Source: Acinetobacter phage vB_AbaM_14/CRR8. From it: DNA of 64,000 nucleotides. The number at the start of each line of letters is the position of its first letter. Position 1 is the first letter of the stretch. A model generated the notes under the pieces. It was not told the DNA's origin. It searched no databases and saw only the letters and a program-made list of their open reading frames with translations. Positions 53,386-64,000 of this stretch are shown here, one piece after another. The stretch lies in the sequence record PV611675.1. One strand, given 5' to 3'. Both the position numbers and the translations under genes were made by a program.

Positions 53386-53883
53386 ATGTCACACTTTGGT
53401 ATAGACCCAAGAGCAGCTAAAGATTTTTGGAGTACTGATCCTCTGAAAGTAAATCAAGAGATGCTTGAGAGTAAGACAATGGCACTTTGTGAAAAGTTTT
53501 TGCATGACATGTTGCTACATGATGCATACTTTTATGGACTATTTAATGCTGGTCCAGATAGTGAAGAGTACCTGAATGCTTTTGCAGATATAAAAGGGAT
53601 TGCACGTAAGTATCCTGTACTCTTCGTAGAGCCAAAGAAGATGACAGATGTTGGAACTATAGGGTTTCCATTAGAACCTAGCTTAAACGAGCTTACACAG
53701 TCAATTAGAGGTGGTATTGCTAAGGATGAGATGTGTGTGGTAGTTGGTAGACCTACAAGTGCATCTGCTATACGTCCTGAAGTGTTGGAGTTTTATAAGA
53801 GTCGTCGTAATAATCCTGTATTGCATGTAGCCCTTGAAGATACTAAACCTTATCTAGTTGAAAGGTACTTAGGAACTTCATAA
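53386..53883 (+). CDS. hypothetical protein
   Basis: 165 aa. Confidence 0.4.
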   Translation: MSHFGIDPRAAKDFWSTDPLKVNQEMLESKTMALCEKFLHDMLLHDAYFYGLFNAGPDSEEYLNAFADIKGIARKYPVLFVEPKKMTDVGTIGFPLEPSLNELTQSIRGGIAKDEMCVVVGRPTSASAIRPEVLEFYKSRRNNPVLHVALEDTKPYLVERYLGTS

Positions 53884-53904: not shown

Positions 53905-54072
53905 ATGAGTTATGACATTCATCGTAAAGCTGCTGCTATTATGTTTGGCATACCAGAGAGTATGGTGACAGACAAGCAACGTAAGGTTGGTAAGGCATAC
54001 AATACAGCTAGACAGTACAAGGCCAGTCATTCCACTGCCATGCATCTAGCATTAAAGGAGAAGGGAGCTTAG
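53905..54072 (+). CDS. 55 aa ORF resembling the O-helix/motif B segment of family A DNA polymerases (possible gene fragment or mimic)
   Basis: DIHRKAAAIMFGIPESMVTDKQRKVGKAYNTARQYK can be aligned to the Pol I pattern DIHxxTAxxxFGVxxxxVTxxxRRxAKxxNFGxxYG. Here the NFGxxYG core has degenerated. RBS ggagattttgaa. Followed by a terminator. Confidence 0.3.
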   Translation: MSYDIHRKAAAIMFGIPESMVTDKQRKVGKAYNTARQYKASHSTAMHLALKEKGA

Positions 54073-54090
54073 GCTCTCTTTTTTATTGTC
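54068..54090 (+). terminator. intrinsic terminator AGGGAGCttaggCTCTCT + T6 (one G-U pair)
   Basis: Read directly from the sequence. Confidence 0.5.
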
Positions 54091-54124
54091 TAGATATTCC
54101 CAGATATATTCAGATATTCCAGCA

Positions 54125-54165
54125 AAATCAGAAAAAATTTGAAAAGTTTTTGAAAGTTTTTGAAA
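54125..54165. repeat. A-tract repeats (TTTTGAAAG x2, GAAAAAATTTGAAAAG) upstream of a promoter (UP-element-like)
   Basis: gaaaaaatttgaaaagtttttgaaagtttttgaaatttcc. Confidence 0.4.
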
Positions 54166-54170
54166 TTTCC

Positions 54171-54200
54171 TTGACATGTGTTGTGAGTTGAACTAAAATG
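54171..54200 (+). promoter_or_regulatory. sigma70-like promoter TTGACA-N18-TAAAAT
   Basis: Read directly from the sequence. It drives a non-coding transcript. Confidence 0.5.
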
Positions 54201-54206
54201 TAATCT

Positions 54207-54425
54207 CTTTATTAAAGGTTACTCCATATTGATTTGAAGATTAACAGGTTTTGCCGAACCTATTGAATAGGAGGATGTTGTATGTGAGCTTATGTGGTAG
54301 ATAGGTGTGACACTACGGAAGTTTGATAGACGAAGTGCTATACGATCCCAGCATCTTGATGGAGGTTCATGAAAGTGTCTAGTGAACTGTGAGAAATTGC
54401 CCATGCTTTGTCGTGGGCTTTTTTG
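54207..54425 (+). ncRNA. candidate ~220 nt non-coding RNA (promoter to intrinsic terminator, no plausible ORF)
   Basis: Bounded by the promoter at 54171..54200 and the terminator GCCCATGctttgtCGTGGGC + T6 at 54399..54425. The interior is more GC-rich than its flanks. The only RBS-like site, aggagg, is followed by a 9-codon ORF. Confidence 0.4.
54399..54425 (+). terminator. intrinsic terminator GCCCATG-ctttgt-CGTGGGC + TTTTTT
   Basis: Read directly from the sequence. Confidence 0.6.
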
Positions 54426-54840
54426 TGCCTGTCTGTCTGGCCTGAAAAAATTTTTAGAGGGCATGATGACTTTTGAAAATTTGAGTGGGATTACAGGAAT
54501 ATCCATTTTTACAACTTGGGTTAAATCTGATCACTTTGGAATTTTAAGAAACTGAAAAGTTAGAGATTGTCAATAGGTATTAACAAAAAATATTGATTTA
54601 TTTTTATTGACTTTGATTTTTATTTACTGTATTCGCATGCGCCCGCTCTTTATAAACGTGGCGTTATTTCGTTGTGGTTGTAGTATGAAAGGTATGTAAG
54701 AACATTCCAAATGATTATTTAGAACTATAAATTTATCTATTTCATACACTTATAAAATTTATATAAAATTTTCTTGCATTTATTTTTAGATTGTTTACTA
54801 TGTGCTTATCGAAACGAAACAAGCCTAGAAAGGTGATGAG

Positions 54841-55440
54841 ATGGAACAAATTACATTAGATTTATTTAGCTTTGAAGAACTCTCTAATGAAGCTCAACAA
54901 GTGGCAATTGAAGCAGTCCGTAACAGTGAATATTATTTATCTCATGATTGGTATGATTCTACAAAAGAAGATTTTCACCAAATCTTAAACATTATCGGCT
55001 TTTATGATGTTAAGAGTCAATTTTCTGGTTTTAATTCTCAAGGTGATGGGGCGAGTTTTTCAGCTAACTACCGTTATCAAACAGAATGTTTAACTAATGT
55101 TAAAATCCATGCACCAAATGATAATGAGTTGCATGATATTGTAAGCGGTATCGTTAAGATCATGAGACGTTATTTCTATCGTCTTGAGTGTGAAATTTAC
55201 ACACAAGGTTATTACTGCCATTCTAACACGATGAATTTTAATTGGTCGTATAATGATAGATATGATTGCAATATTAGTGATGAAGACGAAAGTATCTTGA
55301 ATCAATTGTTCCGAGACTTGGCAGATTGGTATTATGAAAAGCTTAATAAAGAATATGATTACCTTATGAGTGATGAAGGTATCACGGGGCATATTATAGC
55401 AAATGAGTGCAAATATACAGTTGATGGGAAGGAGTTTTGA
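54841..55440 (+). CDS. hypothetical protein (first gene of the AT-rich early-like block)
   Basis: 199 aa. RBS aaaggtgatgag-ATG. Putative promoter CTTGCA-N17-TACTAT lies upstream. Confidence 0.4.
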   Translation: MEQITLDLFSFEELSNEAQQVAIEAVRNSEYYLSHDWYDSTKEDFHQILNIIGFYDVKSQFSGFNSQGDGASFSANYRYQTECLTNVKIHAPNDNELHDIVSGIVKIMRRYFYRLECEIYTQGYYCHSNTMNFNWSYNDRYDCNISDEDESILNQLFRDLADWYYEKLNKEYDYLMSDEGITGHIIANECKYTVDGKEF

Positions 55441-55442
55441 TT

Positions 55443-55583
55443 ATGAAAACTTACTTAATAACATTTGATGGCGGTTATGCATTTATGAATGCAAAAAATA
55501 AAAAGACTGCTAAAGAAAAGTTTATTGAAAAGTGTGTTCGTGAAAGTAATTTCACTCCTGAAAATGTTGTGGTAGTTTATTAA
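55443..55583 (+). CDS. small hypothetical protein (46 aa)
   Basis: MKTYLITFDGGYAFMNAKNKK... Confidence 0.3.
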   Translation: MKTYLITFDGGYAFMNAKNKKTAKEKFIEKCVRESNFTPENVVVVY

Positions 55584-55594
55584 AGGTAAATGAA

Positions 55595-55873
55595 ATGAAA
55601 ATGTCAACTCAAGAGATTATTGATTTCCTATCTGTAAATCAAAGTGCATGGAAAAAGGTAGCACTAAAAAATATTGAAGATATTAGTGCGGTGAATGATG
55701 AGCTAGAAGAAAAAGATATCTATACATTGAAACATGATTGTACATTCTATGATGCTTTGAATGACCACAATACACCTTTTGAAGATGTGTTAAATGATTT
55801 CTTTATGTTACATTTAGACATCGAACAAAATAGCAATGATGTGATGATTTGGTTGCAGCGTATTTATGCTTAA
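55595..55873 (+). CDS. hypothetical acidic protein
   Basis: 92 aa. Confidence 0.35.
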   Translation: MKMSTQEIIDFLSVNQSAWKKVALKNIEDISAVNDELEEKDIYTLKHDCTFYDALNDHNTPFEDVLNDFFMLHLDIEQNSNDVMIWLQRIYA

Positions 55874-55879
55874 TGGTGG

Positions 55880-56215
55880 ATGAAAATGAGTAAACAGCAA
55901 TGTATATTTTTTGATGCCTTTTTTAACTTCAAAAAGAAACGTAAAGTTGAAGAGTACACATTAACTATTACTGTGTGGTACACTCTTAAAGATCAAATAA
56001 GACGTGGTAAATATTGCATCGTCATACATGGCGACAACCCTAGTCGGATGAGTGTAGACGGGGTAAATAAGTTTAAAGACTTTATCGACGGCAGAGAGAT
56101 TACAAAAGGTATTGCTATGTCTAGTGTAAGCTATGACGTGACAAAGTATAGAGGCCATTTGGTGGCAAGTCATGTCAAAGCACAAAACTTGATTGTAAAT
56201 GAAAAAGGTAATTGA
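55880..56215 (+). CDS. hypothetical protein
   Basis: 111 aa. Confidence 0.35.
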   Translation: MKMSKQQCIFFDAFFNFKKKRKVEEYTLTITVWYTLKDQIRRGKYCIVIHGDNPSRMSVDGVNKFKDFIDGREITKGIAMSSVSYDVTKYRGHLVASHVKAQNLIVNEKGN

Positions 56216-56591
56216 TATGAGTAACTTAAATATTGCAGCACATCCTATAGATGGGGAAAACACATTAATCGTAAACGGTTATGAAGTTAAAATCTCGTAT
56301 GATGATGAATTAGATGCTTTGTTGTATCGTGTGTATTACAATAATGAGCATGTAGAGTCATTTTCATCTATTCAGCAAGCTTTTGGTTACATCGAAAGTA
56401 TTGATATAACTTTGTTGCAATGCCCACATTGTAAAAGTTTATTTAGCATGGATGAGGATGGATACCAAATGAATGACATTTTCGAGATAGTGTTTTGTTC
56501 TTTAGAGTGTTCGCATAAACATAATCTTGAACATAAAGATGAGCTATTATCGCAAGGTTATACGGAAAATGATTTAAGTGAATTGGCATGA
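56199..56591 (+). CDS. hypothetical protein with C-terminal zinc-ribbon-like CPHC...CSLEC
   Basis: 130 aa. The likely start is the ATG at 56217. Confidence 0.35.
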   Translation: MKKVIDMSNLNIAAHPIDGENTLIVNGYEVKISYDDELDALLYRVYYNNEHVESFSSIQQAFGYIESIDITLLQCPHCKSLFSMDEDGYQMNDIFEIVFCSLECSHKHNLEHKDELLSQGYTENDLSELA

Positions 56592-56785
56592 TTATAGTTT
56601 GTACGTTCAAATCAACAAATGACATTGTTACTCATTCAGTAGCAATATTTAAAGGTGGTAAGATTGTTAAACAAATCCTGAATATTAAAGAGGATGGATT
56701 AAGAACAGTTTTAGCAGCATACAACACACATAAAGATATTTATTATCGAGATGTAAAATCAAAAGCGAGTTTAAAATGGCGTTAG
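56588..56785 (+). CDS. small hypothetical protein
   Basis: 65 aa. Confidence 0.3.
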   Translation: MIIVCTFKSTNDIVTHSVAIFKGGKIVKQILNIKEDGLRTVLAAYNTHKDIYYRDVKSKASLKWR

Positions 56786-56955
56786 ATGTAGAGATTTACA
56801 GTAAATACGAACATGATACGGGCCTTATATTATATTCCGACTTCAAGCAAGGTCAGTTTATACAAGGTTACATGGGCGATATTACTTATATCATCGTACT
56901 GTGGGATGTTAACGGCATACCTAAAGCCCATTATTCAAAAGAATTTAATATTTAA
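56776..56955 (+). CDS. small hypothetical protein (59 aa)
   Basis: MALDVEIYSKYEHDTGLILYSDF... Confidence 0.3.
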   Translation: MALDVEIYSKYEHDTGLILYSDFKQGQFIQGYMGDITYIIVLWDVNGIPKAHYSKEFNI

Positions 56956-56968
56956 TTTAAATTAATTG

Positions 56969-56997
56969 TTGACAAGGATTTTAAATAGGGCCATAAT
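56969..56997 (+). promoter_or_regulatory. near-consensus promoter atTGTTGACAagg-N-gggCCATAATaccc
   Basis: TTGACA-N17-CATAAT. The unit is repeated almost verbatim at 60132, 60939 and 63215. Confidence 0.55.
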
Positions 56998-57041
56998 ACC
57001 CACATAGACAAACAAACAGCTTAAACAAAAGGTAAAGCGAA

Positions 57042-57524
57042 ATGGCTATGCAACGTATCAGTAAAAAGAAAGAACTAAACGAACAAGAAATCGAAATGAA
57101 GGAATTCTTTCGTTTAGGTAGATTTGAAATGACTGCAACATATATTGCAGAAGTTAAGATGAATGCAGAAGACCGTTATCCAATGGATAAGTTTGCCATT
57201 GTATTTAAAAATGGGTACGGTGATGTAGAAGCATTTGATTTCTATCAAGGTGTAGGCCATAGAAATTTGAATACAAAAGGTTTGATTGGTCAACCATATA
57301 AAACTATTTTTGCACCTAGTGAAGCCGATGTATTATATTGCTTGGTTCTTGATGCTTCATTAGCAAATCTATCTTATGAAGATTACTGTAATGAATTTGG
57401 CTATGACAGTGATAACTTAAAGCACAAGAAGCTTCATATGCTAATGAAAGAAAACACCAAAAAACTTGAAAAGATTTTTAAACTCAATCTAGTTAAGATT
57501 GAACAAATATTGCAAGATTATTGA
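57042..57524 (+). CDS. hypothetical protein
   Basis: 160 aa. Confidence 0.4.
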   Translation: MAMQRISKKKELNEQEIEMKEFFRLGRFEMTATYIAEVKMNAEDRYPMDKFAIVFKNGYGDVEAFDFYQGVGHRNLNTKGLIGQPYKTIFAPSEADVLYCLVLDASLANLSYEDYCNEFGYDSDNLKHKKLHMLMKENTKKLEKIFKLNLVKIEQILQDY

Positions 57525-57536
57525 TAAATAGGTTTA

Positions 57537-57580
57537 CTTTTAGCATGAATCGATTATAATGGGTTCATGCAATAAAGCAA
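57537..57580 (+). promoter_or_regulatory. conserved element ttttaGCATGAAtcgatTATAATgggTTCATGCaataaagcaa (-10 box in the loop of a 7 bp inverted repeat)
   Basis: Second copy at 58776..58820. Lies 28 nt upstream of the 57608 start codon. Confidence 0.4.
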
Positions 57581-57607
57581 ACAACCATACACAAAAGGAT
57601 TCATTTA

Positions 57608-58351
57608 ATGAATACATTTAACATCGAACTAGTAAAGAAAATTGAAAGTGACCTTGCAACGTCAAAGGTTGTTGTAATGGATGCATTGACAGCTATGCAA
57701 AAAGTGCCGTCATACTTGTCGGAACATGTAGCAGAAGCAGACTACACAATGAGACAAGCTTTTCTAGGAAATAATAGCAGTATTGCTAGTGTGTTAAGTG
57801 GTTTAACTCATGCAGCGTGGTCAGAATTTTTTGCTCACCACTTAGTACATCATTTAATAATTGACCGTGAAAGTGTTGCTACACATAAGTATGTGTTTGC
57901 AGACAGCTACAAGCGTTTGTTATATAGTGGTGTAAAAGAGTTGGTAGAATTCAACCAATCAAATGCAGAGGAATTTTTTAATGAGTTCTTAAATATTGAC
58001 CGTGCGAAATGTTCTAAGTGGTTGAAAGATTTGCTAGAACGTACTGGAAAAGATTGGAAAAATTCTAGTAAAGAATTTAAATCTAAAATGACTTTAAGAG
58101 GATTGGATTCATACGGAACTGTAAGCCGTGAACTGGGGCGCACATTATTTGCAGTGTGTAAACATTTGGGCCTTGATTTTACTTTCGACAAGTATTACAC
58201 TGAATTACGTAACCACAGTAAAATTAATGGTGACAAATTTAAGGTTAACGATGATTTGGATATTACATTCGAATATCATCAAAATGGCAATACAACTTTA
58301 CGTATTGATAAAGATTTGGTAAAATTGTTAAACGATTTACTTGAGGGTTAA
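57608..58351 (+). CDS. hypothetical protein
   Basis: 247 aa. Confidence 0.4.
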   Translation: MNTFNIELVKKIESDLATSKVVVMDALTAMQKVPSYLSEHVAEADYTMRQAFLGNNSSIASVLSGLTHAAWSEFFAHHLVHHLIIDRESVATHKYVFADSYKRLLYSGVKELVEFNQSNAEEFFNEFLNIDRAKCSKWLKDLLERTGKDWKNSSKEFKSKMTLRGLDSYGTVSRELGRTLFAVCKHLGLDFTFDKYYTELRNHSKINGDKFKVNDDLDITFEYHQNGNTTLRIDKDLVKLLNDLLEG

Positions 58352-58355
58352 CATC

Positions 58356-58532
58356 ATGATGTATGCATTAGTTTTGATAGTATTTGGTAATAACGTTTAT
58401 ACACCTATCGACAAGGTGGAGATTAAACACAGCCTTACTTATTCGCAATGTCAGAAACAAATGAAAGACTTAAATAAGAACATTCAAGGCGCACAAGTTC
58501 AATTCACTTGTGAATCATATCGATTACGTTAA
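58356..58532 (+). CDS. small protein with N-terminal TM/signal-like segment
   Basis: MMYALVLIVFGNNVY... RBS gagggttaacatc. Confidence 0.3.
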   Translation: MMYALVLIVFGNNVYTPIDKVEIKHSLTYSQCQKQMKDLNKNIQGAQVQFTCESYRLR

Positions 58533-58542
58533 TAGGTGTAAC

Positions 58543-58764
58543 ATGAAATTTGATTTGGATGACTTGGCTAAAAAGACGGATGATACAAGTAACGGTAACA
58601 CGTATCGAATTGTAGAAATCAATTTAGCTCACCAATGTTATTTGGTTGAATGCGAAAACTACTATGGCCCTGAAGATTTAGGTGACGGCATCATGTTATA
58701 TGGTAGTGGTCAACAAGTGTGGGTAGCTGCTTATACATTTGATTGGATAACTCAAAAACTTTAA
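58543..58764 (+). CDS. small hypothetical protein
   Basis: 73 aa. RBS aggtgtaac-ATG. Confidence 0.3.
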   Translation: MKFDLDDLAKKTDDTSNGNTYRIVEINLAHQCYLVECENYYGPEDLGDGIMLYGSGQQVWVAAYTFDWITQKL

Positions 58765-58775
58765 ATAAAGCTTGC

Positions 58776-58820
58776 TTTTAGCATAACTATCTATATAATG
58801 GTGGTTATGCAATAAAGCAA
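58776..58820 (+). promoter_or_regulatory. second copy of the conserved element ttttaGCATAACtatctaTATAATggtgGTTATGCaataaagcaa
   Basis: Same architecture as 57537..57580. Lies 20 nt upstream of the 58840 ORF. Confidence 0.4.
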
Positions 58821-58839
58821 TCGTTATTATATCGGTGAC

Positions 58840-59172
58840 GTGATGAACATTATCAAAGTAACTAAAAACTATATTATCTCTTTCAATGCTGATAATAACG
58901 TACAGTACGTTAAGTCAAAATTAAATGGTAAATTTGCTAAACATACAGAAGCTTTGGAAGAACTTAAGCAATTGATTTTAGAAGATAAAAAGCAAGTTGT
59001 AGACGCTTTTATCGGATTATCAATCTGTGTTTTATCTGTAATAATGGCATTATCTTATATTAAATTTGGTATTTCTTTAGATTTAGGCTTGATTTTAATG
59101 ACAAGTGTTGTTAGTATATCGGGTATAGGTTTTGCATTATCAAATTTCAATGAGGGCATTAATAATGCTTAA
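58840..59172 (+). CDS. membrane protein (2-3 TM)
   Basis: 110 aa. FIGLSICVLSVIMALSYIKFGISLDLGLILMTSVVSISGIGFAL. Confidence 0.35.
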   Translation: MMNIIKVTKNYIISFNADNNVQYVKSKLNGKFAKHTEALEELKQLILEDKKQVVDAFIGLSICVLSVIMALSYIKFGISLDLGLILMTSVVSISGIGFALSNFNEGINNA

Positions 59173-59380
59173 GAATGTTGTATTATCAGTGTTTTATGTT
59201 ATATTTTACAGTTTGATTATGGCTACTTTACTAAGCGTTAGATCAAGCATGTTAACTGTTTACTTTGGTGTATTTATCACCATGATTATGGTTACATTTG
59301 TATTTATTGCAACAGCAAAAGACCATATTGATCTAACAGTATCACAATTATCTGATTGGATGGCCACAAAATGGAACTAA
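59165..59380 (+). CDS. small membrane protein (2 TM)
   Basis: MLKNVVLSVFYVIFYSLIMATLL...VFITMIMVTFVFIATA. Confidence 0.3.
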   Translation: MLKNVVLSVFYVIFYSLIMATLLSVRSSMLTVYFGVFITMIMVTFVFIATAKDHIDLTVSQLSDWMATKWN

Positions 59381-59601
59381 CAAAGCAAGTTAAAATAGTA
59401 TTAGACTCACAAGATTATAAATATCTTTTTGAGCCTAGTTCAAAAATTGAATGGCTGTCTAGTGAAGTTGAGGCATTGGCAAATGGTGGAATAGAGTTTT
59501 ATCATTCCGCTGCATGCAGTCCTTACTATGTATTGACAGTGAATAGTGAAGACTTGAAAGATTGCTTAAAGCTTTATATGATCATATTGTGTTATCTTTA
59601 A
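59371..59601 (+). CDS. hypothetical protein
   Basis: 76 aa. Confidence 0.3.
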   Translation: MELTKQVKIVLDSQDYKYLFEPSSKIEWLSSEVEALANGGIEFYHSAACSPYYVLTVNSEDLKDCLKLYMIILCYL

Positions 59602-59807
59602 GTGTTGAAATAGTAGCAGATTTAGGCAAATACTCTAAGACATATAAAGATGATCAAGAGGATGAGGAGTGGGAAATTAATCACCACATTAACCAAGTAT
59701 GGTCAGTCGATAGTTATAGCGAACTATACCTTGTTAAGAAATCTATTAACAAGCTAGAAGGTGAAGTGTATAAAAAATTGTGCTTAGCAAGAAAAGGTTT
59801 GATCTAA
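59562..59807 (+). CDS. hypothetical acidic protein
   Basis: 81 aa. Confidence 0.3.
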   Translation: MLKALYDHIVLSLSVEIVADLGKYSKTYKDDQEDEEWEINHHINQVWSVDSYSELYLVKKSINKLEGEVYKKLCLARKGLI

Positions 59808-59809
59808 GC

Positions 59810-59947
59810 ATGTATAACATAGTAAATGACAAAGGTGTTGTTGTTAAACAAATCCGTGGCTATTGGGATGCTAAGAGACAGCTAGAAGAACTTAACATTC
59901 AAAAAGGCGGTAAGGTTGAACATAAGCTTGTGAAGGTGGAGAAATGA
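59810..59947 (+). CDS. small hypothetical protein (45 aa)
   Basis: MYNIVNDKGVVVKQIRGYWDAKRQ... Confidence 0.25.
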   Translation: MYNIVNDKGVVVKQIRGYWDAKRQLEELNIQKGGKVEHKLVKVEK

Positions 59948-60123
59948 TTAAACGTGATCTATATCAAGATAAGTACAATCCTCGTAAAACGTGGCAAGTT
60001 AACCACATGAAAGGCGCTAAATACCTTAAACAGTTTATTGACGGTGTACAGTGTGGTAAGGGTATCCGCTGCAATATGAAATTCATTAAGGATATAGGGA
60101 TAAATAATTTTAAATTAATTTAA
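59944..60123 (+). CDS. small basic protein (59 aa)
   Basis: MIKRDLYQDKYNPRKTWQVNHMKGAKYLK... Its start overlaps the previous stop (ATGA). Confidence 0.25.
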   Translation: MIKRDLYQDKYNPRKTWQVNHMKGAKYLKQFIDGVQCGKGIRCNMKFIKDIGINNFKLI

Positions 60124-60131
60124 ATTAGGTG

Positions 60132-60160
60132 TTGACAAGGATGTCACAAAGGCCCATAAT
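60132..60160 (+). promoter_or_regulatory. near-consensus promoter gTGTTGACAaggatg-N-ggCCCATAATacccc
   Basis: TTGACA-N17-CATAAT. Confidence 0.55.
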
Positions 60161-60199
60161 ACCCCACATACCAAGTAAACAGCTTAAAGGAAAGTTGAA

Positions 60200-60334
60200 A
60201 TGAAGGTTAGAATAGTTGGAACACAAATTTTTGGTGAAGTGGTTGAACAAGGCTTTGTAAATGGTAATTTTCTTTATTCAGTAAAGACTGGTGAAGGTAA
60301 GGTTTTTCGAGTTCAACAAGTAGAGTATGTTTAA
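60200..60334 (+). CDS. small hypothetical protein (44 aa)
   Basis: MKVRIVGTQIFGEVVEQGFVNGNFLYSVKTGEGKVFRVQQVEYV. RBS aaaggaaagttgaa-ATG. Confidence 0.3.
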   Translation: MKVRIVGTQIFGEVVEQGFVNGNFLYSVKTGEGKVFRVQQVEYV

Positions 60335-60517
60335 ATGAAACGTAAATATGTGTATTTAAGAGTGTTGCAACAATATACGTCTTGTGGTTGGGAGGATGTC
60401 GATTGTTTTGATGTTAATAATTCCACTATACTTGAAAGAAAACAAAGCATGAAGGCTCATAGAGAGAATCAGCCACAATATGCATTACGATTTGTAAATA
60501 GACGAGAATTAGCTTAA
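60335..60517 (+). CDS. small hypothetical protein
   Basis: 60 aa. Confidence 0.3.
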   Translation: MKRKYVYLRVLQQYTSCGWEDVDCFDVNNSTILERKQSMKAHRENQPQYALRFVNRRELA

Positions 60518-60591
60518 TTGTTTGTTTATCCGTAGCATTCTATAGGGATGCTATTAATAAACTCTCAACAAGCCTAAAAAGGTGATTTAAA

Positions 60592-60930
60592 ATGTTAAAC
60601 ATGTCTAATATCCAAAATGTTGCAAATGCTAACCTTGGAACTATCGAGAGCATCGATATCGAAAACATGTATACAAACAGTGGTAGCAAGGCCCCTAACC
60701 AATTTAACCTATTCATTTATGGTCAAGAAGGTAACATAAGAGTATTTAAATCTTATGACACAATCATAGCAGTCCGTTGTAATGGTGTAACATACTTAGA
60801 TCAAGGTAAATGGGATTACTCACCTACAACATTACGTTATCTTAAACAGTGGTTAGGCACTCAAGATAGTAAAGCGGAGATTGTGAAAAAGATTGATGAC
60901 GGGATTTATAAATTAGTTGAATTAAACTAA
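60592..60930 (+). CDS. hypothetical protein
   Basis: 112 aa. RBS aaaaggtgatttaaa-ATG. Confidence 0.4.
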   Translation: MLNMSNIQNVANANLGTIESIDIENMYTNSGSKAPNQFNLFIYGQEGNIRVFKSYDTIIAVRCNGVTYLDQGKWDYSPTTLRYLKQWLGTQDSKAEIVKKIDDGIYKLVELN

Positions 60931-60938
60931 AATAGTGC

Positions 60939-60967
60939 TTGACAAGGATGTCAAACAAAACCATAAT
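60939..60967 (+). promoter_or_regulatory. near-consensus promoter gCTTGACAaggatg-N-aaCCATAATagcg
   Basis: TTGACA-N17-CATAAT. Confidence 0.55.
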
Positions 60968-60997
60968 AGCGACATAGGCAAGCAAAGGTTTAATGAG

Positions 60998-61393
60998 ATG
61001 AAAACAGTCCATATAGAAAATGCTCCACTAGCAGTACAAAAAGCATTTGAGCATGTAAAGTCACTATTTCCAACATTAACGAGTGTTGAGTATGACGAAA
61101 TTTGTCATTGGGACTTTCAGGAAGAGGGATGGAAGAGTCTTAATTTTCGTAACGTTAAAGTAGATATAGACATCTTGAATGATGCAGCAGACGCACAATA
61201 TAACATCGGTGTACCAGTACGTTATATTCTAAATACGTCTAATGTCATGAAATTTGTTAGAGGATTTTCAGGCATTTATTTTAACAAGAGAAATCATGAT
61301 TGGGAATGGCGTTACAAGTACGTTATGGATGATTATGGAAATTTAATCAACATTGAACGTAATTTCCAAAAAGTTGTATTCTTCTATCAATAA
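60998..61393 (+). CDS. hypothetical protein
   Basis: 131 aa from the ATG at 60998. The ORF track version from 60935 would include the promoter. Confidence 0.4.
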   Translation: MKTVHIENAPLAVQKAFEHVKSLFPTLTSVEYDEICHWDFQEEGWKSLNFRNVKVDIDILNDAADAQYNIGVPVRYILNTSNVMKFVRGFSGIYFNKRNHDWEWRYKYVMDDYGNLINIERNFQKVVFFYQ

Positions 61394-61413
61394 GTTTGTA
61401 TATAGGTTTTAAG

Positions 61414-61809
61414 ATGGATAAGTCAGAATTACTTAATCTAGCTGCTAGTGTTGCTTTATCATTCTTAGGTAATAATGCAGAAGCTCCTCAAGGTGATGGC
61501 TTTGTGAAAGTTTATAGTGATGCAAACGAAACAATGTTTGTGTTGAAAACTCGTGAATCTCTTGTAGGTGGTGCTTGGATGAAGACAGCGACTGTAAGGT
61601 CTGTATTTAAGCAATATCCTAATATTGGCACTAAAGTAGAGGGTAGTTATTTAGTGAACTGTGAAAATCGTCAATATACGATTGACTCTGTGATGAAAGT
61701 CAATTCAAGTGGCAAGGTGTTGGATGTTCAACATGCTACGTTTAGAACATGGTATAAAGCCGATGATCAAGCATTAGAAAACATGATTGATTTTGTTTGT
61801 GAGGGTTAA
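61414..61809 (+). CDS. hypothetical protein
   Basis: 131 aa. RBS aggttttaag-ATG. Confidence 0.4.
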   Translation: MDKSELLNLAASVALSFLGNNAEAPQGDGFVKVYSDANETMFVLKTRESLVGGAWMKTATVRSVFKQYPNIGTKVEGSYLVNCENRQYTIDSVMKVNSSGKVLDVQHATFRTWYKADDQALENMIDFVCEG

Positions 61810-61813
61810 CAAG

Positions 61814-62326
61814 ATGAAAGAGCTTAAAACTATTGATTTGTGTGAACTTGCCCCTGAGCTAATAAAAGAGTATATAATTATTGGTGACGACAAAATTGAC
61901 TTGTTATCAATATTAAAAATCTTTCGTGACTGGGTAGAGAACCCAACAAGTAGAACTCTTAAGATTAATAGTCAAAATGGTATTAATAACGGCTTTAGTC
62001 TATCTTCTGGTATCTGTGGGAATATTAATTTTATCTGGGTAGACAGTACAGAAGATAAAAGGAGTATTGACCTTATGATACCTTTACATAGAATCTTTAA
62101 ATTATGGCCTAAATGTAGTGGTGATCTATGTTACCCAATCCCTAACCCATATGTAGAGAATCCAACCCATCTCGATAATGCAGACGTTTATCAAGACATT
62201 TCTAAGAGTGGGCGTTATAGCCTATATGATAAGACATCGGAGTATGGGCGACTTAGACTTGAGTTACTGGATTTTCTAATAGAGACGATTAAAAATGACT
62301 TTGATTTGTACATAGAGAAGTATTAA
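61814..62326 (+). CDS. hypothetical protein
   Basis: 170 aa. RBS gagggttaacaag-ATG. Confidence 0.4.
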   Translation: MKELKTIDLCELAPELIKEYIIIGDDKIDLLSILKIFRDWVENPTSRTLKINSQNGINNGFSLSSGICGNINFIWVDSTEDKRSIDLMIPLHRIFKLWPKCSGDLCYPIPNPYVENPTHLDNADVYQDISKSGRYSLYDKTSEYGRLRLELLDFLIETIKNDFDLYIEKY

Positions 62327-62609
62327 ACATATTGTAACTTTGTGTAAATTAGGTCCTTTGTATGATGCATTGGGCCTACTGTCTATCGACAGTATACTAA
62401 ATATAATTAAATCAATTGTTTGCACACTGCAAACATGTATACAAATTCAAGGATGTTTTTCGACGACGACAAAGGAGAAAAACAAGTAAATGACTATTGT
62501 TAATAGCGTTCGCTTGCGCTCAATTGCTATTAGGGAAATGTTAAGTATAACTATGGTACTATCGTACCAGAAGGTTAAACAATAGCTCTAACGAGCTTAT
62601 ATAACCAAT

Positions 62610-62630
62610 GAGGCTTATAGCCTCTTTCTT
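62610..62630 (+). terminator. intrinsic terminator GAGGCttataGCCTC + TTTCTT
   Basis: Read directly from the sequence. Confidence 0.45.
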
Positions 62631-62714
62631 GCACATCAATTTACTCGTATCCACTCGTTATCATCTCTCAAACCCTTTAAGGGCAATGTATTTGCAAAGC
62701 AAATAGGTTTTAAT

Positions 62715-62805
62715 ACCTATCTAGTATTCATCTATCTAACATACCTATCTAGGGTTATTACTTATCTAAATAAACATATCTAGTATGTACTTATCTAGGG
62801 TAATT
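62715..62805. repeat. six direct copies of YYTATCTA(G/A) spaced 13-17 bp apart (iteron array)
   Basis: The copies are acctatctag, catctatctaa, acctatctaggg, cttatctaaa, catatctagt and cttatctaggg. The region is non-coding. Confidence 0.5.
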
Positions 62806-63057
62806 TCATCAAGAAACATGAGAAGTATTACATTACAAGAAAGGGTAGATTCATCTAGTTTATTAGGCAAACCTATGTCTCTTTTACAAGTATATTTTTG
62901 TAAATTTAAATTTGATTAAATAACTCACAAAAGTTAGACTTTGTCAAGCAGAATTTTCAGAGAATTTACTGTTTCATAGATGTGCAAGAATGTCAAGAAA
63001 TATTGAAATTTCCTGAGATTTAATTAAATTAATTGAAATAATAAATAAAGATAACGA

Positions 63058-63086
63058 TTGACAGGATGAGAATTGACAGGTATAAT
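63058..63086 (+). promoter_or_regulatory. consensus promoter TTGACA-N17-TATAAT
   Basis: gaTTGACAggatgagaattgacaggTATAATga. A second TTGACA lies in the spacer, so the promoters are overlapping tandem ones. Confidence 0.5.
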
Positions 63087-63140
63087 GATAATAGGATTAT
63101 AATAATAGACAGGACTGCAATAGATGATGATGATAAGAAT

Positions 63141-63168
63141 ATAGTACCATAATTTCTCAAAAAGTCAA
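63141..63168 (-). promoter_or_regulatory. minus-strand promoter (TTGACT-N16-TACTAT on - strand), a duplicate of the 8591..8618 promoter and its upstream CATTTATTGTTA element, with no ORF downstream
   Basis: The + strand reads atagtaccat...agtcaagtcatttattgtta. The identical atagtacca and gtcaagtcatttattgtta blocks occur at 8591-8632. Confidence 0.4.
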
Positions 63169-63214
63169 GTCATTTATTGTTAAGAATTGTAATTAAATTA
63201 ATTTAAATTAGTTG

Positions 63215-63243
63215 TTGACAAGATGATGAGAAAGGGCCATAAT
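63215..63243 (+). promoter_or_regulatory. near-consensus promoter agTTGTTGACAagatg-N-agggCCATAATgggc
   Basis: TTGACA-N17-CATAAT. It drives the 63270 and 63392 ORFs. Confidence 0.55.
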
Positions 63244-63269
63244 GGGCACATAGTAGAGGAGTTATACAA

Positions 63270-63380
63270 ATGAAATGTAACGTACACAATATGATTGACA
63301 ATGTAGAGTATGTATTCAGTGTTGTTATGGTGATGTTATTCTCACTTGTAGCGTACTTTGCTGGAATTAACTTATTTTAA
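63270..63380 (+). CDS. small hydrophobic peptide (36 aa)
   Basis: MKCNVHNMIDNVEYVFSVVMVMLFSLVAYFAGINLF. RBS gaggagttatacaa-ATG. Confidence 0.25.
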   Translation: MKCNVHNMIDNVEYVFSVVMVMLFSLVAYFAGINLF

Positions 63381-63391
63381 GGTGTAAGACA

Positions 63392-63703
63392 ATGACAACA
63401 TTAAATCAAGCGGTAAATGGTGAATTAGTAAAGGGTACTATTGTACTATCTCAAATCATCCGTGAGACAGATTTCTTTATGGACGACATAGGCAATCGTT
63501 ACAGCTTGCAAATGTCAGGTGATGCAGACATAGACGGCAATGATGAATATGCATTGCACGATTATGAAGGTGGAACTCTTGGCTATGTGATTGAGTCTGA
63601 CATGGTGGCATATACAGTCGATTGTGCTAAGAACATCACTAAGGTCCGTATATGTGGTCTATGGCTACTACCTTATAAGCATGTACCAGTCAAGCTCATC
63701 TAA
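63392..63703 (+). CDS. hypothetical protein
   Basis: 103 aa. RBS aaggtgtaagaca-ATG. Confidence 0.4.
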   Translation: MTTLNQAVNGELVKGTIVLSQIIRETDFFMDDIGNRYSLQMSGDADIDGNDEYALHDYEGGTLGYVIESDMVAYTVDCAKNITKVRICGLWLLPYKHVPVKLI

Positions 63704-63723
63704 TGTGTAAGACAACAAACAAC

Positions 63724-63750
63724 AAGAGGGCCTAGTGTCCTCTTTCTTAT
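63724..63750 (+). terminator. intrinsic terminator AAGAGGgcctagtgtCCTCTT + TCTTATTG
   Basis: Loop contains CCTAGTG, as in the terminators at 7302 and 21075. Confidence 0.5.
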
Positions 63751-63960
63751 TGTCATAATATCAATAACAATATCACATCATTAACTATTTATTATAACAG
63801 CATAGTGCATCAACCAACTGTACACCATACAACATATAAACAATAACAGCAAACACATCACAAATTTTATTAACTCCATAGCATACTCTCCTAAAGTATA
63901 ACACAGATATTCAAATCTATATAGCCAAATATTTACAAATTTTTCACAGATATTCCAATT
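63746..63960 (+). other. G-depleted (A/C/T-rich), strand-asymmetric non-coding tract containing CAGATATTC(A/C)A repeats, ending in a TTGACT promoter-like site at 63961
   Basis: About 215 nt with only a handful of G residues on the + strand and no ORF on either strand. The motif cagatattcaa / cagatattccaatttttcag recurs at 54088-54120. Confidence 0.4.
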
Positions 63961-64000
63961 TTTCAGTTGACTTATATTTTAGGGTGTGGTAGGATGGGTT

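Follow-up and report, generated by a model that had tools for sequence, protein, structure and literature searches.

The DNA analysed here, referred to as the window, is a 64-kb stretch that forms the right-hand part of a Saclayvirus genome (Acinetobacter myophage, ~102 kb). Saclayviruses are in development as therapeutic phages against carbapenem-resistant Acinetobacter baumannii. To our knowledge, their gene regulation is unstudied, and no Saclayvirus transcriptome was found in the literature. A 770-nt gap, unannotated in every relative, is flanked by replication and nucleotide-metabolism genes on one side and by AT-rich ORFan genes on the other. The GC content was ~0.37–0.38 before this region and ~0.33 after it, which agrees with an earlier note on this DNA that had placed a boundary between GC-normal and AT-rich parts here.

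The gap holds a promoter-to-terminator unit, which was kept in 16 of 16 known relatives (all known Saclayvirus genomes) and was the sole such unit without an ORF within the right-hand 10 kb of the window. A unit of this kind had been proposed in the earlier note as a candidate non-coding RNA (ncRNA) locus, and an element-by-element check bore it out with small corrections. The features of the locus are listed in Table 1. The predicted transcript was close in length to the ~220 nt estimated before, with its start taken near 54206. Its GC content was 39.7%, compared to 27.8% and 29.6% in the non-coding flanks, so the higher GC content that had been remarked on was also found. The promoter at 60132 was considered as the start of a second unit of like architecture and was rejected, the unit there being coding.

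Table 1 Features of the ncRNA unit, its surroundings and the second motif array (window positions).
Feature	Position	Strand	Description
Upstream intrinsic terminator	54057..54085	+	closes a 55-aa ORF; GGGAGC-TTAG-GCTCTC plus T run
AGATATTCC-type motif array	54092..54121	+	~3 copies with a 10-bp period: 54092, degenerate near 54102, 54112
Phased A/T tracts	54125..54170	+	directly upstream of the -35 hexamer; TTTGAAA at 54138, 54149 and 54159, 10–11 bp period
Sigma-70-type promoter	54171..54199	+	TTGACA 54171–54176, 17-nt spacer, TAAAAT 54194–54199
Predicted non-coding transcript	54206..54424	+	~219 nt; start and 3' end predicted from the -10 hexamer and the U tract, respectively
Variable 5' part of RNA	54206..54289	+	three sequence types; 48/84 columns vary
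95-codon ORF	54219–54506	-	judged spurious
AGGAG-N8-AUG-UGA start-stop site	54269..54287	+	conserved, predicted unpaired in the consensus fold
Conserved 3' domain	54309..54379	+	closing helix GACACU/AGUGUC (54309–54314 with 54374–54379) around two hairpin arms
Intrinsic terminator of the unit	54399..54424	+	GCCCAUG-CUUUGU-CGUGGGC plus U6; stem 54399–54418 (7 pairs, 6-nt loop), TTTTTT 54419–54424
Non-coding spacer	54426..54840	+	unit terminator to first ORFan gene; 415 nt; fold z-score -0.11
Conserved block of spacer	54426–54482	+	conservation continues beyond the terminator
Variable block of spacer	54483–54550	+	two or more forms; inverted GGAATATCC at 54495–54503 in some genomes
Nearly invariant block of spacer	54551–54840	+	290 nt
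16-nt AT-rich tandem repeats	54591–54633	+	within the nearly invariant block
Weak candidate promoter	54774–54801	+	TTGCAT-16-TACTAT; in the nearly invariant block, which also holds the ribosome-binding site
Second ATATTC-type array and promoter-like site	63905..63995	+	motifs at 63905, 63927 and 63948; TTGACT-17-TAGGAT at 63967–63995

The promoter hexamers matched the consensus at 11 of 12 positions, and the sigma-70 weight matrix score of the promoter (13.6) was joint second across the whole window. Both hexamers had been recognized previously, with a spacer given as 18 nt that is in fact 17 nt. As a class, consensus promoter-like sites in the window were not above chance (16 found vs 21 expected), so the reality of the promoter at 54171 rests on comparative conservation and not on its consensus match. 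Across 17 genomes, none of the six columns of the -35 hexamer varied and two of the six in the -10 hexamer did (A2 and T6 being invariant), while 15 of the 17 spacer columns varied with no indels and at constant length. By this footprint, the sigma-70 hexamers and the spacer length appeared to be under selection. A+T content reached 80% in the 40 nt preceding the -35 hexamer, and the A-tract/TTTGAAA repeats seen there before were located as three copies. These A/T tracts may serve as an UP-element-like or curved-DNA promoter enhancer. An inverted repeat flanking the unit (54113–54147 with 54469–54503) was rejected as a conserved feature, because its right arm lies in the multi-form block and is missing in many relatives.

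The terminator of the unit had an energy of ~-14.9 kcal/mol with flanking A/U pairing counted in, and only one of its 26 columns varied among the 17 genomes. The strong terminator previously read at 54399..54425 was thus recovered with both its stem and its T6 tract. A second conserved terminator (-15.2 kcal/mol by RNAfold, with its core conserved in relatives) lies at the end of the upstream gene and insulates the unit on that side as well.

No coding signature was found in any of the six frames. The 87 substitutions were distributed 29/29/29 over the codon positions and ~25% were synonymous, compared to 53/24/75 and 44% in a neighbouring control gene. ORFs were unstable among relatives on both strands. 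A conserved protein-coding frame in related phages, which the earlier note had named as evidence against an RNA gene, was found in none of the 16 relatives. With no conserved coding frame, and with a promoter and a terminator that behave as selected elements, the proposed ncRNA reading was supported.

Conservation was uneven along the RNA, with 24 of 109 columns varying in the 3' half compared to 48 of 84 in the 5' half. In the 5' part, the stem of a hairpin at 54247–54260 changed from GGUU/AACC to GGCA/UGCC in the phiAbaA1/KissB/Rocket type, giving two compensatory pairs (P = 0.15–0.25, column permutation preserving haplotypes, ~3 effective haplotypes). The closing helix of the 3' domain was present in the minimum-energy fold of 14 of 14 sequences, and its pair 54312/54376 changed from A-U to U-A in four sequences (P = 0.33, column permutation, ~3 effective haplotypes). 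In the consensus fold, 98.7% of cells were paired, three pairs carried compensatory changes, and there were several conserved G-U pairs, which the opposite strand could not form. The covariation score was above all 500 shuffles, but it was not significant with haplotypes preserved (~3 effective haplotypes). The fold was not more stable than expected from shuffling (whole RNA, z = 0.19; 3' domain, z between -0.1 and -0.7). The compensatory changes that had been hoped for are therefore present without statistical significance, and the suggested structure prediction recovered a recurrent helix but no stability beyond that of the shuffles.

The 3' end of the RNA, GAGAAAUU-GCCCAUGCUUUGUCGUGGGC-UUUUUU, is an A/U-rich single-stranded stretch followed by the terminator hairpin, and it was invariant in the alignment. 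It has the Hfq-type 3' feature (a hairpin, a U tail of at least 6 and an A/U-rich stretch before them), which is necessary but not specific. High conservation was not specific to the RNA, since the 290 nt before the next gene were conserved to a higher degree and lacked signs of structure. Part of the conservation could therefore stem from recombination or from a function at the DNA level.

The motif array upstream of the promoter (period 10, 2.9 copies by Tandem Repeats Finder) ends in the exact 11-mer CAGATATTCCA at 54111–54121. In the window, the exact 11-mer CAGATATTCMA occurred only at 54111, 63904 and 63947, and the latter two positions confirm the recurrence that had been reported for the right end (63900–63960). 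AGATATTC occurred 10 times vs 3.9 expected, a count exceeded in 0 of 100 shuffles. ATATTC-type arrays lay upstream of only two of 25 strong promoter-like sites. The second array and its promoter-like site occupy the extreme end of the direct terminal repeat, the boundary of which was mapped via the Aci05 annotation; this repeat is annotated with a length of 1151 bp and maps to window positions ~62850–64000. The promoter-like site at 63967–63995 may share its regulation with the RNA promoter. The possibility of a 10-kb long terminal repeat beginning at 54121, of the SPO1, T5 or phage K type, was rejected given the annotated length of 1151 bp and because the record that begins at 54121 is an assembly artefact with a 127-nt overlap.

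A covariance-model search of Rfam (4227 models), the check suggested by the earlier note, matched no known family in the whole window at gathering thresholds, and within 54200–54430 there was no match even with E values up to 10. ARAGORN identified no tRNA or tmRNA in the window. No homolog of the unit was found outside the genus: an IMG/VR search for distant homologs returned two phages only, both already in our set, a metagenome protein-anchored scan returned nothing, the four matches from 21-mer scans of metagenomes and GTDB were due to chance and showed no extended similarity, and a distant blastn search of the phage collection returned the same 20 records and nothing further. Searches within the window for a paralog or a phage-specific promoter motif gave short matches at chance level, except for a 20-nt repeat of the ribosome-binding region. 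Among phage mRNAs, the best pairing with a translation start was -29.2 kcal/mol, compared to shuffled-RNA minima averaging -30.5 kcal/mol, so none stood out as a target.

Several specific roles for the RNA were considered and rejected. RNA anti-CRISPRs (Racr) mimic a host CRISPR repeat, including its Cas6-bound hairpin (PMC10651486). The resemblance of our RNA to the A. baumannii I-Fb repeat (GTTCATG...TGAGAAA, confirmed in the literature) was at background level, with a local score of 14 vs 19 elsewhere in the window and four occurrences of the flank pattern vs 4.4 expected, and the hairpin of the repeat was absent from the RNA. A CsrA/RsmA sponge was rejected on inspection only, as the four GGA motifs in 220 nt were near the composition expectation and the best CsrA-like site was not conserved. 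A riboswitch-type antiterminator was also rejected, with no competing pairing longer than 4 bp by inspection, no riboswitch model match and the next gene 415 nt away.

Because a promoter and a terminator enclose ~220 non-coding bases and are kept in 16 of 16 relatives, a small ncRNA gene is the most likely explanation of the locus. We give about an even chance to the unit being a free-standing gene for a previously undescribed ncRNA of ~220 nt. The upstream operon ends at its terminator, and the near-consensus host sigma-70 promoter that follows, with its UP-like A/T region, would drive a transcript that has no conserved reading frame and ends at the intrinsic terminator. Since the promoter needs host RNA polymerase only, synthesis of the RNA would start as early as the first minutes of infection. 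Its functional core would be the conserved 3' two-thirds (54290–54424), which comprise the closing helix, the two hairpin arms, the A/U-rich linker and the terminator hairpin with its U6 tail. The RNA may act in trans as a regulator, either by base pairing, its 3' end having an Hfq-type look, or by protein binding. Some polymerases would probably pass the terminator and add to ORFan gene expression. The ATATTC array with its 10-bp phasing would most likely be the binding site of a regulator, and the same regulator would also act on the second promoter-like site, where the terminal repeat ends.

A possible alternative, which we consider clearly less probable, is that the RNA is a cis-acting leader or attenuator and that 54171 is the promoter of the first ORFan cluster (54841 to ~56590). 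The 220-nt RNA would then be a prematurely terminated by-product and read-through of the terminator the regulated step, brought about by an antiterminator loading at the promoter (lambda Q-like), a put-like polymerase modification or riboswitch-like sensing of a signal by the conserved domain. This reading is favoured by the ORFan cluster having no strong promoter of its own: no sigma-70 matrix score above 7.2 was found in the spacer (379 sites in the window reach 6), and the next strong plus-strand promoter after the unit is at 56969. It is also consistent with a conserved structured domain 19 nt upstream of the terminator hairpin, with conservation that extends past the terminator to 54482, and with a layout that appears similar to that of lambda PR'-6S RNA-tR'. 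In virulent Pseudomonas phages, ncRNA candidates usually arise by premature termination in 5' UTRs (doi 10.1101/2023.10.13.562163). However, 415 nt from terminator to gene is unusually long for an attenuator or riboswitch, and the best pairing found by inspection that could rival the terminator stem was a 4-bp CAUG/CAUG. A plausible weaker promoter for the cluster, TTGCAT-16-TACTAT, is conserved 40 nt upstream of the ribosome-binding site, with TAATAT in two relatives. In Lana and rV5, a unit of this kind is missing upstream of the homologs of the first downstream gene, and no Q-like or N-like gene was found among the annotations of the relatives. The idea that homologs of the 199-aa gene in other genera share a conserved upstream arrangement was rejected, as Lana and rV5 lack it.

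It is unlikely that the 770-nt gap is mainly a DNA-level element, such as a replication origin or a protein-binding control region, with an incidental transcript. Such an element would use the phased repeats, the strong promoter for transcriptional activation and the AT-rich tandem repeats. The two arrays of 10-bp period upstream, the 16-nt tandem repeats, the nearly invariant non-coding DNA without RNA-structure evidence, the location at the end of the replication module and the ATATTC array common to the unit and the terminal-repeat edge all fit this view, but cumulative GC skew showed no inflection at the unit and no iteron or DnaA-box-type family was identified. Moreover, the precisely conserved terminator and the -35/-10 footprint argue for the importance of a defined RNA end. 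We also regard it as very unlikely that the unit encodes a translated micro-ORF, either AGGAG-N8-AUG-UGA or a frame of 6–9 codons, for a tiny peptide or regulatory ribosome loading. The longest ORF after AGGAGG has 9 codons, as noted before, and was read from ATG 54275 to TAG 54304. AGGAG and AUGUGA were near-fixed (columns 67–71 and 79–83 of alignment A1 invariant), with the 8 nt between them variable. The stop after AUG was UGA, or UAA in Liucustia and Ab_121, where the G-to-A change keeps the stop and is also synonymous in the overlapping frame. Translation would also fit the unpaired state of the start-stop site and the overlapping frame of 6–9 codons, which was open without indels in all relatives up to an invariant TAG (54302–54304). 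However, the start of the 9-codon frame was not conserved (shifted in the P1 type, absent in the phiAbaA1 type), codon-position bias was absent in that half of the RNA, the peptide sequence was variable, and the conserved bases could equally have RNA-level roles. That the 95-codon minus-strand ORF is a real gene is extremely improbable, and the earlier suspicion that it is spurious held. A ~61-codon core starting with MGNFSQ was open in most relatives, and PHANOTATE-based annotations call parts of the ORF in KissB, Rocket, phi1_092033 and HB01. However, its length ranged from 55 to 98 aa among relatives, its N-terminal part was frameshifted in CP14, Aci02-2 and Aci01-1, and its C-terminal part was truncated in phi1_092033 and Rocket. 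Nearly all nucleotide changes altered the amino acid, with no third-position or synonymous bias, and there was no Pfam or PHROG match. The ORF is also opposed in direction to all neighbouring genes and starts within the terminator stem.

There is a slim chance that the RNA unit and the shared ATATTC arrays form a phage-specific switch, with one regulator acting at the RNA promoter and at the site at the end of the terminal repeat. The start point of the second promoter-like site coincides with the physical end of the terminal repeat, and read-through into the ORFan host-takeover genes could be coupled to genome-end events, such as transcription across the concatemer junction or terminal repeat formation. 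By analogy, the conserved RNA domain could act on the transcribing polymerase like put RNA, or as a decoy.

In lambda PR'-6S RNA-tR', a strong host-polymerase promoter gives a terminated ~200-nt non-coding transcript just before a gene block; read-through depends on the promoter-bound Q protein, and the 6S RNA has no known role of its own. The Saclayvirus unit is similar in its strong promoter and its terminated non-coding RNA of ~200 nt upstream of a gene block, whereas its RNA is partly conserved, ORFan and not late genes lie downstream, and no Q-like gene is annotated. The put RNA of HK022 makes polymerase ignore terminators. It resembles our RNA as a two-hairpin structured RNA between a strong promoter and a terminator, but there was no sequence similarity and no sign of read-through here.

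Such ncRNA units are now often seen in phages, and the Saclayvirus unit is of the same kind. ncRNA candidates of virulent Pseudomonas phages have been found by ONT-cappable-seq (Putzeys et al., doi 10.1101/2023.10.13.562163). Like our unit, they are short (~100–250 nt), bounded by a start site and a terminator, intergenic or in 5' UTRs, without an ORF preceded by a Shine-Dalgarno sequence, conserved in sequence at the genus level and of no known function. They were detected experimentally and mostly lie directly before a gene that is possibly regulated, whereas the Saclayvirus RNA is predicted from sequence and its terminator is 415 nt from the next gene. No sequence similarity was found between them. 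Small RNAs of phages for which an action on mRNAs of the host or the phage has been proposed or shown include a trans-acting sRNA of lambda (bioRxiv 10.1101/2024.10.31.621285) and sRNA1 and sRNA2 of PAK_P3 (PMC4933390). The Saclayvirus RNA shares an intrinsic terminator with a U tail with Hfq-dependent sRNAs. The two PAK_P3 sRNAs are late products of 3' UTR processing that lack a dedicated start site, whereas the Saclayvirus RNA has its own early-type promoter.

The right-hand part of the genome has no other conserved non-coding transcription unit, and this one lies at the switch point of two gene modules. Should the RNA target the host, it would join the very few regulatory RNAs known from strictly lytic phages, as the first such case for Acinetobacter. 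A regulated leader would reveal how the timing of the ORFan (host-takeover) genes is set. The small spurious ORFs annotated in the gap should be corrected by this result, and the promoter and both terminators, being compact and conserved, could serve as parts in Acinetobacter genetics.

The earlier note, made from the sequence alone, had proposed a promoter-to-terminator transcription unit without an ORF at 54088–54425, and the observation is real, with an interpretation that holds as far as computation reaches. Judged from sequence comparison, the 54171 unit appears to be a conserved, insulated, non-coding transcription unit with a host-type promoter. A similarity search with the region recruited 20 records, all from Acinetobacter phages that belong to Saclayvirus (about 100–112 kb), and TAC1 was the nearest relative (95.6%). 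The final base of the window aligned to the final base of the 1151-bp direct terminal repeat annotated in Saclayvirus records, so the window corresponds to the rightmost 64 kb of a Saclayvirus genome. The gene map was taken from a RefSeq relative. No tRNA or tmRNA genes were found in the 64-kb window, so all of the 13 tRNAs reported for a close relative (PMC11984226) must sit in the left-hand ~40 kb.

Features of the window around and beyond the 54171 unit
Feature	Position	Strand	Remark
Tail fibre genes	start of window		from RefSeq relative
Replication and nucleotide-metabolism genes (primase/helicase, DNA polymerase, ribonucleotide reductase, ligase, others)	about 8.6 kb–54 kb	+	from RefSeq relative
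55-aa ORF	53905–54072	+	one border of gap
5' hairpin	54247–54260		RNAalifold
Closing helix	54309–54314 with 54374–54379		RNAalifold
Two hairpin arms	inside closing helix		RNAalifold
Terminator hairpin	54399–54418		RNAalifold, fourth predicted element
Conserved block	54426–54482		non-coding spacer
Block with at least two sharply distinct forms in the relatives	54483–54550		within otherwise conserved non-coding DNA
290 nearly invariant bases	remainder of spacer up to 199-aa gene
199-aa ORF	54841–55440		other border of gap
Small AT-rich ORFan genes	after unit, extending into terminal repeat
Promoter-like site TTGACT-17-TAGGAT	63967–63995		very end of terminal repeat

The comparative set comprised 16 distinct relatives, with an alignment spanning the whole 770-nt gap that holds the unit. 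The gap was gene-free in all careful annotations of the relatives; short ORFs were called only by PHANOTATE-style annotations and had inconsistent lengths. As a class, matches to the promoter consensus were not commoner in the window than in shuffled sequence, so a match alone proves nothing and comparison with relatives is needed. The hexamers TTGACA (54171–54176) and TAAAAT (54194–54199) were borne out, but the spacer between them is 17 nt, not 18 nt as first described. Across the aligned relatives the -35 hexamer was invariant, 15 of the 17 spacer columns varied at constant length, and the -10 occurred as TAAAAT, TATAAT, TAGAAT, or GAAAAT, with A2 and T6 kept in all; this pattern is a classic selection footprint. 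With a sigma-70 weight matrix, the promoter tied for second best in the window. The terminator, a hairpin followed by T6, was found as reported, with one variable column out of 26. The upstream gene closes with its own conserved terminator (-15.2 kcal/mol), so the unit has insulation at either end. The GC richness noted earlier was also seen (39.7% in the RNA region vs 28–30% in the non-coding flanks). No other promoter-to-terminator unit in the right-hand 10 kb lacks an ORF; the similar-looking unit at 60132 leads straight into small genes with ribosome-binding sites.

Two observations concern the upstream border. The relative Aci05 carries a stand-alone HNH endonuclease gene (about 566 nt, 2200–2766) as an insertion at the equivalent of window ~54085–54090, where it separates the upstream terminator from the ATATTC array; the RNA unit that follows this gene is intact. 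The conserved 55-aa ORF has similarity to the motif-B region of family-A DNA polymerases: its match to Pfam PF00476 (E = 4e-5) scored 23 bits, short of the 34.3-bit cut-off, and PHROG families of DNA polymerases matched at E about 3e-4. It may be a polymerase-gene relic or a small independent domain. The clade of this phage is known for polymerase swapping (PMC11348598).

No coding signature was detected in the unit. The 87 distinct substitutions in 54203–54428 were distributed 29/29/29 over codon positions in each of six frames, and about a quarter were synonymous, as expected by chance; the control gene 53386–53883, treated identically, gave 53/24/75 and 44% synonymous. The minus-strand ORF (95 codons, 54219–54506), which had looked spurious, carried an N-terminal frameshift in three relatives, was truncated in two others, and matched no Pfam or PHROG family. 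Given the even substitution pattern and this unstable, family-less ORF, the relatives carry no conserved coding frame, in line with the non-coding reading. The longest ORF following AGGAGG has 9 codons, as previously stated. A start-stop site or micro-ORF within the RNA has a low probability; in its favor, AGGAG and AUG-UGA are invariant around eight variable bases, the site is predicted to be unpaired, and the stop is kept in two phages where UGA is replaced by UAA.

The 5' part of the RNA was variable (48 of 84 columns, three sequence types) and the 3' part conserved (24 of 109 columns varying). A consensus fold of 14 distinct sequences contained four elements, among which the closing helix was shared by the minimum-energy folds of all the sequences. 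Three pairs showed compensatory double changes, two in the 5' hairpin and one at 54312/54376, where A-U became U-A over a distance of 64 nt in the same four sequences. One-sided changes in predicted pairs were mostly from G-U to A-U or G-C, and several conserved G-U pairs were compatible with the plus strand only. The shuffle and slide controls of the covariation tool looked favourable. Because the alignment holds only about three haplotypes, many of its columns co-change by descent, and a stricter null permuted whole columns with haplotype patterns preserved. Under this null, 33% of permutations of the 3' domain produced a helix that was fully conserved and included a compensatory pair; for a helix of 4 bp with two such pairs the share was 15–25%. 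Fold stability did not exceed that of shuffled sequence. Nothing contradicted the modelled RNA structure, which is plausible but not established.

The unit is Saclayvirus-specific and has no RNA-database match, with Rfam searched at permissive thresholds as well. No homologs outside the genus were found in IMG/VR, metagenomes, or GTDB genomes, and a distant blastn of the phage collection returned the same records only. A literature search found no published transcriptome for this phage group. The conserved part contains GTTCATG...TGAGAAA, which resembled both termini of the type I-Fb CRISPR repeat of A. baumannii; an RNA anti-CRISPR was rejected, as the likeness to this literature-confirmed repeat was at background level and the repeat's hairpin was missing. 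A CsrA sponge found no support on inspection, GGA motifs being neither enriched nor conserved. Pairing of the RNA with phage translation-start regions was in no case better than that of shuffled RNAs.

Our best guess is that the RNA is an early regulatory RNA, and gating of the ORFan genes is the main alternative role. The unit joins the candidate ncRNAs of lytic phages and is not a new kind of system. That it is a free-standing sRNA gene we regard as an even call. It is possible, but rather doubtful, that the RNA is a terminated leader, with read-through of its terminator gating the ORFan genes. Sigma-70 scores in the spacer did not exceed 7.2, a score that hundreds of sites across the window reach, and no strong promoter follows on the plus strand until 56969, so the first ORFan cluster may depend on read-through from 54171. 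However, 415 nt of non-coding DNA separate the terminator from the next gene, no alternative pairing able to compete with the terminator was found, and a conserved, weaker promoter candidate (TTGCAT-16-TACTAT, 54774–54801) lies 40 nt 5' of the ribosome-binding site. In Lana and rV5, moreover, homologs of the 199-aa gene lack such an upstream unit. The sRNA and leader readings are not exclusive, since a leaky terminator could serve both.

Within the nearly invariant spacer, an AT-rich 16-nt tandem repeat (54591–54633, 2.9 copies, TTTATTTTTATTGACT-like) was considered as an unwinding element or promoter-related sequence. With one mismatch (within-window E = 0.01), the 20-nt ribosome-binding stretch AACAAGCCTAGAAAGGTGAT (54818–54837) appears again at 60567–60586, ahead of the gene at 60592. 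The first ORFan gene encodes the 199-aa protein (PHROG 5162) in some relatives and an unrelated ~158-aa protein in others, the breakpoint falling on the start codon (relatives L004, L006, L010, L011, and L015); the invariant non-coding DNA may therefore act as a recombination linker. Homologs of the 199-aa protein occur in rV5-like, jumbo, phiCbK-like, and Campylobacter phages, and neither Pfam nor PHROGs supported its label 'RNA polymerase binding protein' in CP14.

Upstream of the unit, the repeats described before were recovered as three TTTGAAA copies 10–11 bp apart, together with an array of AGATATTCC-type motifs of 10-bp period. The A/T tracts directly 5' of the -35 resemble an UP element or curved DNA, both common at strong phage promoters. 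The recurrence at the right end was exact, the 11-mer CAGATATTCMA occurring in the 64 kb only at 54111, 63904, and 63947. ATATTC-type motifs lay upstream of only two of 25 strong promoter-like sites in the window, the 54171 promoter and the site at the very end, and both regions share the order terminator, TTATTGTC, ATATTC motifs, promoter. Read from sequence, the simplest explanation would be one regulator common to both sites. Of the forms of the variable spacer block, only the one present in the window contains the ATATTCC motif in inverted orientation (GGAATATCC, 54495–54503). The terminal repeat stops 5 nt past the -10 of TTGACT-17-TAGGAT (within the region 63905–64000 of the window; 1054–1151 in relative L017), so the physical genome end nearly coincides with the predicted transcription start. 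At the left end of Aci05, transcription from this site would run into the 3' end of a gene on the minus strand (1264–1608), and given that orientation it could yield an antisense RNA or help form the terminal repeat. A 10-kb terminal repeat (54121–63957) was rejected on the annotated repeat length, and an inverted repeat flanking the unit was dropped as not conserved in relatives.

Some database records showed irregularities. The first 127 nt of PV067941.1 (UOL-KIMZ-24) are identical to its last 127 nt, an overlap that usually marks circular assemblies left untrimmed, so its start point inside the unit region is arbitrary. In CP14 (OP585105.1) and HB01 (OP917929.1), several product names are implausible for small ORFan genes: the 55-aa ORF, for instance, is called 'portal protein', a 158-aa ORF 'terminase large subunit', and proteins of 46–62 aa 'sliding clamp' or 'clamp loader'; these appear to be annotation-transfer errors.
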